In this document: one piece after another, positions 31,756 to 34,057 of the stretch
How the letters are laid out: every line of letters begins with the position of its first letter
Numbering within the stretch: position 1 is the first letter of the stretch
Sequence record: NC_070992.1
Length of the DNA: 64,000 bases
Strand: one strand, 5' to 3'
From: Escherichia phage Paul
Translations under genes and position numbers: made by a program
The notes under the pieces: model-generated
Databases searched by the model: none
Told to the model about the DNA's origin: nothing
The model's input: only the letters and a program-made list of their open reading frames with translations

Positions 31756-31965
31756 TTAATATTCCTTGATTGGGGATACCACAAAACCACCAAGAGGTGA
31801 GGTAAAAGATTTATGTAAGCTTATTTTGCTATAAATCTTTGGAGCCATCTTAAGAGCCTTCTTAAAACGACGAGCATCTTTACGAGTAGCAAAATGCTCT
31901 GTAACAGGTATAGAATGGTCTTGGTAGATACAATACATCACCGTCCAGTATTTTCCCATAATCAA
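31756..31965 (-). CDS. small-protein family A member (69 aa)
   Basis: Shares a W..V ... TR..AR..KK ... Y pattern with ORFs at 33442, 33651 and 33860. Confidence 0.4.
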   Translation of the reverse strand: MIMGKYWTVMYCIYQDHSIPVTEHFATRKDARRFKKALKMAPKIYSKISLHKSFTSPLGGFVVSPIKEY

Positions 31966-32234
31966 ACACCTAGTGCAGTAGTTAAAAATGCTTTCAGGTT
32001 TGCCTCAGTCTGCATACCAGAGAGGCTGTAGTGTGCACCACTGTTACGGTCAGGTACGACGAAAGCAGGTATGCTTCGTACACCATATTTAACAGCTTGT
32101 TCACGACCATCTCCTTCAAGGATGTTAATCTCTTCCACTTCTACATCAAACTCCCTAACAACCTTCTCAAAGGTAGGAGCCATTGCTTTACATGGAGCAC
32201 ACTGATCACTATAAAACTTAATTACTTTAGACAT
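31962..32234 (-). CDS. thioredoxin-like protein
   Basis: CAPC redox motif in a Trx-fold context (KFYSDQCAPCKAMAP ... SIPAFVV). Confidence 0.7.
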   Translation of the reverse strand: MSKVIKFYSDQCAPCKAMAPTFEKVVREFDVEVEEINILEGDGREQAVKYGVRSIPAFVVPDRNSGAHYSLSGMQTEANLKAFLTTALGV

Positions 32235-32242
32235 ATAAATCC

Positions 32243-32422
32243 TTATGCGGTCAGGATGTGAAGCAGGAATGGGATAACAACAGCTACGATAACCATGATA
32301 GTTGATGCTGTTTGAATCTCACCTTTCTTATCAGGAGTTTCTTCAATAAGCTTACCAGAAGCCCAATAAATACCACCACCAATAAAGATAGCCCAAATAC
32401 CCCATACGATTGCTGATAACAT
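32243..32422 (-). CDS. small two-TM membrane protein (59 aa, below the track cutoff)
   Basis: ORF MLSAIVWGIWAIFIGGGIYWASG...TIMVIVAVVIPFLLHIL found by eye; two hydrophobic helices. Confidence 0.35.
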   Translation of the reverse strand: MLSAIVWGIWAIFIGGGIYWASGKLIEETPDKKGEIQTASTIMVIVAVVIPFLLHILTA

Positions 32423-32483
32423 ATATCTATATCCTTATAAATAAGTTCGCCCCACCTCGGGTTAGGAGACAGGGCGGAGGTTT

Positions 32484-33047
32484 TTAGTAAGACACATCAC
32501 CACTTGAATGGGACATGTTGCTCTTGACGAAGTAACAATACTTGCCAAGACCTTCATTAATTTCTTGAAGCATACTCTGATCGACAGGGTAGGAGGCTAA
32601 ATCACCATCAAACTCATCCATCTTCTCAATAATACACATCAAGGTCATGCACATATCAGAGAGCATACCATCCATATCTAGATCAGCATTCCCCTCTGAG
32701 AACCAAGCGTGGGATAGGTAGTTAGCTGCTGTAGCATCCACTTTAACACAGTGGTAACGCATACGTTCAGCAATACGATCTCCTACTTGTCGTGCGTAAT
32801 CTTCCAGCTCATCAAACATACCATGAACACCCTGAAATCCTGCACCAGAGACGTTCCAGTGGTAGTTTTTAGCTTTGATATGCAAGAGTTCCATGTTAGC
32901 TTGTAAGCAGCTCAGGATGTGTTCTATGCTGTTTCCACTAATCATGCCTTGCATCGTTTCAAGGCGAGAGATTGATAGGTCGGACCGGTCTAACATACTA
33001 TAGCTGTCACGACCAATATCAGGTAAATCAAAGACATTCTTATGCAT
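32484..33047 (-). CDS. Dps/ferritin-like protein
   Basis: AKNYHWNVSGAGFQGVHGMFDE...DRIAERM matches the Dps HWN.RG..F..VH region; start probably an internal Met. Confidence 0.55.
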   Translation of the reverse strand: MHKNVFDLPDIGRDSYSMLDRSDLSISRLETMQGMISGNSIEHILSCLQANMELLHIKAKNYHWNVSGAGFQGVHGMFDELEDYARQVGDRIAERMRYHCVKVDATAANYLSHAWFSEGNADLDMDGMLSDMCMTLMCIIEKMDEFDGDLASYPVDQSMLQEINEGLGKYCYFVKSNMSHSSGDVSY

Positions 33048-33369
33048 TTGGGTTTTCTCCATCAAGTTCAACTGAGTTAGCAACGTTACGTGCAATATTA
33101 TCCATTACCTGCTGGGTAATTACGATGCAGTTCTGTGGGTCTACTGACTTAGAACGCCCCATTTCAGGGTCATACACCTTAACACGCTTAGCAGTTGAAC
33201 CTGTAACCTGAAGAACCTTCAATAGATATCCCTGATTACCAATAGACCAAGCAACAACATCACGATTCTTGATAAAGCGACCAAGCATATCACGATGATA
33301 AAACTGTTGCATCACCTTGGATTTTGTAATCTCTTCAGTGGGCGGGGCCACTTTACTCAAATCTAACAT
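33040..33369 (-). CDS. hypothetical protein
   Basis: 109-aa ORF. Confidence 0.35.
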   Translation of the reverse strand: MLDLSKVAPPTEEITKSKVMQQFYHRDMLGRFIKNRDVVAWSIGNQGYLLKVLQVTGSTAKRVKVYDPEMGRSKSVDPQNCIVITQQVMDNIARNVANSVELDGENPNA

Positions 33370-33441
33370 AACTCTCTCCTGTAAAATACAAATTCTTATT
33401 GTACTCTATATACATTTGAGAGTTACCATATCTACTACCAA

Positions 33442-33651
33442 TTAGTAGTAAACTACTTTAGACATAAAAGAACCCGAGCTAGGGTCTTCGTACCAGCGAT
33501 GAATGTCAGCACTTTTAACAGTTCCTATTAGAGCTTTCATATTCTTTTTAGCGACACGAGCCTCTTTGCGAGTGTTAAACAGTTTGATATTATCTTTACC
33601 TAAGTGTTGTTTCTGTTCCCAGACAACACGAATAGCCCACATCTTTTTCAT
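33442..33651 (-). CDS. small-protein family A member
   Basis: MKKMWAIRVVW...NTRKEARVAKKNM...VVYY; tandem paralog. Confidence 0.4.
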   Translation of the reverse strand: MKKMWAIRVVWEQKQHLGKDNIKLFNTRKEARVAKKNMKALIGTVKSADIHRWYEDPSSGSFMSKVVYY

Positions 33652-33860
33652 TAGTAATGCACCTTTCCGCTGATATAAACACGACCAGAAGAATACTCCT
33701 TGGCCTTATGGATACTGATACTATTGACCACGTCACCAGTAAGCATAGTCTTTTTAAAATCTCGAGCTTGCTGACGGGTGGGTAGTGCAGTCATAGTCAT
33801 TCCACCTGATGCCCACTTAATCTTCGCTAACCAGAACTGTCTCATGGTGATCGGTCTCAT
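33651..33860 (-). CDS. small-protein family A member
   Basis: ...PTRQQARDFKKTM...GKVHY; tandem paralog. Confidence 0.4.
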   Translation of the reverse strand: MRPITMRQFWLAKIKWASGGMTMTALPTRQQARDFKKTMLTGDVVNSISIHKAKEYSSGRVYISGKVHY

Positions 33861-34057
33861 TAGTAATAAACCTTATTATTTGCCATAAAAGCACCTTCGC
33901 TACTCACGATAGCTTTACCGATACTAACCTTGCTAAGTCTAAAAGTAGATTTGTATTGATATTTTACCCTACGGGCGTGCTCTCGAGTATTAACAAAATC
34001 TACAGCTACTAACTCTCCAGTCGTGTTATCATGTACACGAACAATCCACTTTTTCAT
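33860..34057 (-). CDS. small-protein family A member
   Basis: MKKWIVRVHD...NTREHARRVKYQY...NKVYY; tandem paralog. Confidence 0.4.
   Translation of the reverse strand: MKKWIVRVHDNTTGELVAVDFVNTREHARRVKYQYKSTFRLSKVSIGKAIVSSEGAFMANNKVYY

Follow-up and report, generated by a model that had tools for sequence, protein, structure and literature searches.

The locus described here raises the question whether four small minus-strand open reading frames (ORFs) among the nucleotide-metabolism genes of Escherichia phage Paul form one gene family, and what such a family might do during infection. The ORFs, named A1 to A4 by ascending coordinate (Table 1), lie in a stretch of 64,000 nucleotides (nt) of sequence record NC_070992.1, which was analyzed as a whole and is called the window below. 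A4, A3 and A2 follow one another as an array, and A1 lies apart from them. A preliminary description, made from the DNA letters alone, had taken the four for paralogues sharing a sequence motif, had placed three of them in strict tandem and had suggested that their products bind nucleic acids. All four ORFs exist at the coordinates that it gave.

Four paralogues of one phage protein family

The four ORFs are ancient, positionally orthologous paralogues of the lineage-restricted family PHROG 4939, kept in about 97 sequenced relatives, and this conclusion is fully supported. The hidden Markov model (HMM) of phrog_4939 matched each of them from end to end, covering positions 1–67 or 2–67 of the 67 profile positions, with E-values of 3.8e-21 (A1), 5.4e-27 (A2), 6.8e-28 (A3) and 2.5e-26 (A4). 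Pairwise similarity was measured by formal alignment: over 2000 shuffles, Smith-Waterman scores reached 5.9–9.7 standard deviations (SD) in five of the six pairs, and just 2.9 SD above shuffles for the pair A2/A4. The E-values of single-pair BLAST and phmmer comparisons were marginal (7e-4 to 0.18). When each paralogue was compared to the 377 ORFs of the window, its best non-self matches were the other three paralogues. A profile of the four, run against the window translated in all six frames, turned up no fifth member. Formal alignment and HMM search together thus fully bear out the paralogous family put forward in the preliminary description.

In the alignment, M1, W7, T27, R28, A31, R32, K35 and a terminal Y are invariant in all four sequences (numbering of the first sequence). 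The motif originally proposed, W..V followed by TR..AR..KK and a final V.Y, therefore held in its core and had to be corrected at its edges, as the second K of the KK pair is a Y in the copy at 33860 (A4) and the final V.Y is present in three copies only, the fourth ending in IKEY.

The family is identical to that of phiEco32 gp69–71 (phi32_69–71), as indicated by the full-length HMM match and the equal genomic position; the location of the array between the dCTP deaminase gene and gp68 establishes positional orthology with these genes. Ever since phiEco32 was sequenced, PHROG 4939 genes have been annotated as ‘hypothetical protein’ with no functional annotation, and a literature search found no paper discussing their products. 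A1 and another member are 100% identical to gp066 (67 amino acids (aa), corresponding to A1) and gp071 of phage Paul. As the genes were already catalogued, the gain lies in a clean description of the extent, fold, genomic slots, evolution and expression context of the family; small paralogue sets are ordinary in the phage Paul genome, and the finding by itself overturns or opens nothing.

Distribution and genomic slots in related phages

A megablast search with positions 31000–35000 retrieved 97 phage records at 80–99% identity, nearly all of them Escherichia phages of the Gordonclarkvirinae (Kuravirus and relatives). According to tblastn against GenBank phages, the A3 type is the universal copy, with orthologues in 97 of about 97 related records, followed by the A2 type (93 records), the A4 type (63) and the A1 type (20 only); the A1 copy is missing from SU10 and phiEco32. 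The same kind of search gave no GenBank phage match for a distant member (P0117). In a word-indexed search of 5.8 billion proteins, 100 clusters were obtained, all of 47–87 aa and without a Pfam domain, which come from contigs of about 75–79 kb where these are complete. When 1.84 billion representatives were searched exhaustively with a profile, only 29 matched at E ≤0.001, all of 47–79 aa and consisting of a single stretch. Neither fusions to larger proteins nor cellular homologues were found in this search.

Two slots hold every copy in twelve annotated or metagenomic relatives. In the first, the order is dCTP deaminase, one to four family copies, gp68 (109 aa), Dps-like protein and thioredoxin; in the second, an optional copy lies directly upstream of thyX. 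The dCTP deaminase domain PF22769 (DCD) was matched in every related contig, and each of the nine related contigs that span the junction has the gp68 orthologue as the next gene after its final family copy. Copy number varies between phages: A3 is the sole copy in phage LAMP, ECBP2 (Suseptimavirus) carries A3-A2 and a copy in the thyX slot, KBNP1711 (Nieuwekanaalvirus) has A4-A3-A2 and a thyX-slot copy like the window, and one metagenomic contig contains at least four copies in tandem. Because the order A4-A3-A2 is constant in Kuravirus, Nieuwekanaalvirus and Suseptimavirus, the duplications are older than the split of the three genera.

Outside this group, Aeromonas phage LAh_8 (Lahexavirus) encodes a divergent homologue (E 5e-9) two genes upstream of thymidylate synthase. 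The family HMM found no member in the loci of the 7-11-like phages SE131 and vB_CsaP_009, and these phages were therefore not counted as carriers. Gp092 of Salmonella phage SE131 (73 aa), encoded just upstream of thyX and considered as the protein behind a BFVD match in this phage, was rejected as a family member, being acidic and unrelated.

The array slot also takes up other genes, namely an HNH endonuclease and the phrog_2347 gene for a 68-aa protein, which is present in phage Paul and absent in phiEco32. In metagenomic relatives, HNH endonuclease genes are inserted into the same module at different places (L005, 5367–5876; L008, 6773–7267), and one of them sits between dcd and the family array.

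Predicted fold and conserved basic residues

AlphaFold2 runs with family alignments gave confident single-domain models of the same topology for A2 and A3 (pLDDT 87 and 93.8, respectively). Both consist of a long strand, a short strand, a helix of 11–12 residues, a long strand and a short strand (β-β-α-β-β), with the final bridge at the penultimate residue. The fold is thus predicted to be a minimal split β-α-β (two-layer α+β) sandwich, built as hairpin-helix-hairpin and without demonstrable homology to others. Only the family itself was found at significant E in a BFVD search. Ferredoxin-like or RRM-type sandwiches (RRM, bS6, PII-like, nucleotide-cyclase and polymerase palm domains) scored in the range of generic fold resemblance; they are arranged β-α-β-β-α-β, whereas the family has a single helix and lacks RNP1 and RNP2. 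PsaD, the ferredoxin-docking subunit of photosystem I, is larger, has extra elements and belongs to unrelated biology; at 7–13% identity there is no sequence relationship, and homology to PF02531 was not detected. A Pfam match to the RNase H1 hybrid-binding domain/Cauli_VI (PF01693) was likewise not obtained. T4 Dmd and AcrIIC3, small α+β modulators from phages, show no sequence similarity to the family; their targets are known proteins, while the family is uniformly very basic and has an invariant basic motif.

Pfam and NCBIfam gave nothing consistent for the family, and none of 45 members matched a PADLOC-DB defence model at E up to 1. The sequences contain neither catalytic nor metal-binding nor membrane motifs, and zinc-binding, membrane, toxin-antitoxin and enzymatic roles were discarded for want of motifs or matches.

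All 129 members collected are basic, with an isoelectric point (pI) of 9.0–11.1 and a net charge of +2 to +12 (median +8); the pI of A1 is 9.9. Most products of the neighbouring genes are acidic. A DNA mimic of the Ocr/ArdA type was rejected, as a strongly acidic surface would be expected of it. Among 27 representatives at 60% identity, W5, T27, R28 and R32 do not vary, and 26 of the 27 have A31. A basic residue stands at positions 28 and 32 in all of these representatives (100%); at positions 2, 8, 35, 36, 39, 47 and 52 the share is 67–93%. The terminal Tyr is present in 123 of the 129 members. If ideal helix geometry is assumed, R28, K35, K39, R32 and K36 would fall within one sector of 100 degrees adjoining a buried, hydrophobic stripe of A31, F34 and L38, and this basic sector would form a continuous ridge about three turns long.

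Translation and expression context

The array genes are in strict tandem, as the preliminary description had it: A4/A3 and A3/A2 each overlap by one base in a TAATG, at 33860 and 33651, respectively. The 68-aa gene upstream in turn overlaps the start of A4 by ATGA. Every array start has an AAGG-type Shine-Dalgarno sequence 9–10 nt ahead of it. For A3 and A2 this sequence falls within the conserved ...G/N-K-V-x-Y codons of the previous family copy, and for A4 within the M-K-G codons that belong to the 68-aa gene upstream; in front of A1 there is a TAGGTG at a distance of 7 nt. With stop and start codons overlapping and each Shine-Dalgarno sequence inside the previous gene, the triplet would be translated by coupling. 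A terminator-like hairpin in the 3' end of A2 (33486–33471) was dismissed because such hairpins occur at chance level (5 sites, 4.3 expected).

Promoter P68, which of all promoters used by the phage sigma factor gp36 lies furthest upstream, reads aAATGTATA in phiEco32, SU10, NJ01, ECBP2, KBNP1711 and 172-1 (PMC8948821 Table S3). The element at 33409–33417 matches it and would be the P68 counterpart, read by gp36 and marking the boundary between early and middle genes. In SU10, coding sequences (CDS) 69–125 are classed as sigma70-dependent early and CDS 25–68 as middle genes by homology to phiEco32, and there is no terminator at the end of the early genes (PMC4281155). The boundary differs slightly in PMC8948821, where the ‘middle cluster’ includes the polymerase and nucleotide enzymes. 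Because the P68 element follows A2, and given the SU10 class assignment, the triplet would be the promoter-distal tail of a sigma70-read early/replication unit, which encodes the primase-helicase, the Pol exonuclease subunit, the nucleotidyltransferase and the dCTP deaminase, and A1 would belong to the gp36-dependent middle unit.

The pattern AATGTATA has six matches in the window, compared to 2.9 expected by chance: 33409–33417, 28382–28389, 22144–22151 and 56407–56414 on the minus strand, and 12313–12320 and 22217–22224 on the plus strand. Several of them are probably gp36-dependent middle/late promoters such as those described for phiEco32, the site at 33409 being the only one placed relative to genes.

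A putative nucleic-acid-binding function

We tentatively favour the reading, with a probability of roughly one in three, that the proteins are accessory binders of polyanions, most probably of nucleic acids, which would act through a shared basic ridge and paralogue-specific loops. Nucleic-acid binding is favoured because what all paralogues and even distant relatives keep unchanged is a basic motif, and neither a hydrophobic interface nor catalytic residues. The same idea in the preliminary description is consistent with the basic composition and the conserved basic stripe on the helix. The surface by which each protein would bind its polyanion would combine K/R8, K47 and H51-K/R52 from the sheet with the stripe R28-R32-K35-K36-K39 of the helix, which T27 would cap. 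Targets or partners would differ between paralogues owing to loops that evolve fast; an invariant basic core with divergent loops would fit a shared class of ligand and different specificities. The proteins might thereby serve as accessory factors of early infection, for example in organizing, protecting or regulating phage or host DNA or RNA, and not as enzymes. Small basic DNA-binding or nucleoid proteins of the phi29 p6 type are expressed early or with the replication genes and have no enzymatic motif; the likeness of the family to them is by analogy only. If nucleic acid is bound, the family would represent a new minimal basic α+β binding module, and its ancient paralogue series would be useful for studying how specificity diverges.

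Several observations weigh against this reading. Searches of Pfam, NCBIfam and PDB sequence profiles gave no significant similarity to a characterized nucleic-acid-binding domain. The match in the PDB-profile search, to the region of the RNP1 strand plus helix in the CELF1 RRM, was non-significant (E 0.03), and no stretch passed alone; Pfam RRM_1 (PF00076) matched none of 28 members at E up to 5, and neither the RRM topology β1-α1-β2-β3-α2-β4, whose first β-α unit is absent, nor the RNP2 and RNP1 motifs are found in the models or the alignment. A basic surface is equally suited to binding an acidic protein, and in so small a fold the invariant arginines could be structural, engaged in salt bridges or in cation-π contacts with W5/Y69. 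Finally, the expression class derives from what PMC4281155 and PMC8948821 state by homology, and mass spectrometry of SU10 detected 34 proteins, none of them a product of CDS 69–71, although the preparation was crude and small basic proteins yield few tryptic peptides.

Evolution of the array and alternative functions

The evolution of the locus was followed by comparison to SU10, phiEco32 and Ptacy1479. The flanking enzymes (dcd, Dps, trx and thyX) and gp68 are 96–100% identical in aa sequence to their counterparts in these phages, whereas identities are 74–96% for A2 (74–75% to SU10 and phiEco32), 88% for A3 and 69–89% for A4. Synonymous divergence (dS) is 0.33–0.97 in the array and 0.03–0.31 in the flanks, the near-identical Ptacy1479 comparisons excepted; the island therefore carries older, exchanged alleles (a mosaic) and does not merely evolve under relaxation. 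The ratio of nonsynonymous to synonymous divergence (dN/dS) is 0.14–0.39 in the array (comparisons below 90% aa identity; A2 0.23, A4 0.22–0.39) as against 0–0.10 for the enzymes and gp68. A ratio of 0.73 for the near-identical A2/Ptacy1479 pair rests on four substitutions. The A copies are real coding genes under purifying selection, and the array locus behaves partly like an accessory region, though the A3 and A2 types are nearly universal.

The gp68 orthologue, which adjoins the fast-evolving array and overlaps the start of the Dps-like gene, is 100% identical in aa sequence in 54 phage records, and its dN is 0 in all three comparisons. Such extreme constraint on an uncharacterized protein is notable. 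Homologues at 31–37% identity reach the C3-type podophages of Aeromonas, Proteus, Cronobacter and Salmonella.

An island of variation flanked by nearly unchanging genes, with mosaic exchange of alleles, a copy number from one to at least four, slots that take up HNH endonucleases and unrelated small genes, and a position in the early class would also suit factors of host takeover or counter-defence. Each paralogue would then bind another acidic protein of the host and block or divert it, for instance a defence nuclease or a nucleotide-depleting enzyme, in an accessory array shaped by an arms race. In addition, Gordonclarkvirinae are strongly resistant to restriction-modification with no inhibitor known (PMC11990801), and host-directed proteins would be candidates for this unexplained resistance of kuraviruses, phages used in therapy work. 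We regard this as the main alternative, only a little less probable than the binding of nucleic acids. With different protein targets, the same basic residues would not be expected to be invariant in all paralogues and in distant relatives; A3 and A2, near-universal and fixed in position, are more semi-core than accessory, dN/dS is well below 1, and basic proteins are not DNA mimics like Ocr or ArdA.

Clearly less probable are small regulatory or adaptor subunits of the phage machinery for dTTP synthesis and replication (dCTP deaminase, ThyX, thioredoxin, Dps-like protein and gp68). The strict synteny, with copies directly after dcd and/or before thyX, extends to divergent relatives whose ThyX is 73–75% identical, the Lahexavirus homologue again lies close to thymidylate synthase, and translational coupling suggests matched expression. 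Nevertheless, physical interaction can be deduced only weakly from the order of genes in a colinear phage operon, and near-invariant enzymes alongside quickly diverging small proteins fit tightly co-evolving complexes poorly. Copy number also changes from one to four against a constant set of enzymes, and SE131 and vB_CsaP_009 have dcd, trx and gp68-like genes (SE131 also thyX) with no family member detected.

It is very improbable that the family is the missing factor of restriction resistance in Gordonclarkvirinae, its early, translationally coupled proteins coating or remodelling incoming and replicating phage DNA or blocking restriction complexes on it. Such anti-restriction by shielding of the DNA would be distinct from both DNA mimicry and base modification and would act beside the dCTP-deaminase/nucleotidyltransferase locus, which the BASEL authors suggest may underlie the resistance (PMC11990801).

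The terminal Tyr and the presence of RimK-like ATP-grasp, amidoligase, COOH-NH2 ligase and glutamine amidotransferase genes in the kuravirus early region would accommodate substrates or carriers of the phage ATP-grasp/amidoligase enzymes, whose C-terminal Tyr carboxylate might be extended or ligated. This proposal is extremely improbable: it is an analogy to RimK acting on ribosomal protein S6 and to tubulin-tyrosine ligase, the ligase genes are non-adjacent, about 5–12 kb away in phiEco32 coordinates, and the terminal Tyr is missing from the Lahexavirus homologue and from two metagenomic members; this Tyr is more simply a core residue, since the last residues pair back onto the sheet in both models. 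Chance ORFs or decaying, functionless duplicates, which the weak individual pairwise E-values and the lack of a peptide in the SU10 proteome might suggest, are refuted by the profile matches (E 1e-21 to 1e-28), orthologues at the same position in as many as 97 genomes, the dN/dS values, confident fold predictions and a Shine-Dalgarno sequence 7–10 nt before each start.

Genes of the locus and other features of the window

The genes of the locus (Table 1) are part of the long leftward early/middle block that is typical of phiEco32-like phages, and ThyX, thioredoxin, the Dps/ferritin-like gene and dCTP deaminase place the family among nucleotide-metabolism genes, as first described. For A1, an alternative TTG start at 31965 would give 69 aa; the ATG at 31959 is more likely, as phage Paul and Ptacy1479 annotate 67 aa. 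A3 may start at its second ATG (33845), as many of its orthologues do.

Table 1. Features of the phage Paul locus, with positions in the window
Feature	Position	Strand	Description
ThyX thymidylate synthase	31084..31740	-	downstream limit of the second slot; starts 15 nt past the A1 stop
A1	31756..31959	-	optional family copy in the thioredoxin-thyX slot; 67 aa from ATG 31959
Thioredoxin	31962..32234	-	upstream limit of the second slot
Dps/ferritin-like gene	32484..33047	-	Pfam Ferritin, E 2.9e-7
gp68 orthologue (109 aa, phrog_10984)	33040..33369	-	conserved downstream limit of the array slot
aAATGTATA element	33409..33417	-	pattern match; in the 72-nt gap just downstream of A2
A2	33442..33651	-	third array gene, 69 aa; orthologue of phiEco32 gp69
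A3	33651..33860	-	middle array gene, 69 aa (64 aa from ATG 33845); orthologue of phiEco32 gp70
A4	33860..34057	-	first array gene, 65 aa; orthologue of phiEco32 gp71
68-aa acidic protein (phrog_2347)	34054..34260	-	variable occupant of the array slot; pI 5.6; outside the family
dCTP deaminase	34261..34794	-	conserved upstream limit of the array slot; annotated so in relatives

Two database labels in this region look like annotation errors: the Dps/ferritin-like protein is called ‘integrase’ in several GenBank kuravirus records, and the A1-type copy of NJ01 is called ‘putative ABC transporter’. The nucleotidyltransferase (34807–36207, minus strand; phrog_12715), annotated elsewhere with a class II CCA-adding-enzyme domain and showing a faint Gad2 Pfam match in a relative, is unusually divergent among kuraviruses (81–90% aa identity, dN/dS 0.18–0.26).

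Further sets of related genes were observed in the window. A looser superfamily of small early proteins (73–93 aa), all encoded on the minus strand and cross-matching phrog_7832, 6570, 16423, 9955 and 8365, is found at 50232–50471, 50468–50722, 52096–52317, 55730–55966 and 55969–56250, and is probably the other paralogous family meant in the preliminary description. The adjacent minus-strand genes at 27419–27703 and 27705–27959 both belong to phrog_6814 and are 56% identical over 41 aa, and two adjacent plus-strand paralogues of phrog_4287 (‘DNA ejection protein’; 8589–9641 and 9654–10622) are 32% identical over 273 aa. A lone tRNA-Arg gene (anticodon TCT) lies in the early region at 53430–53507 on the minus strand.

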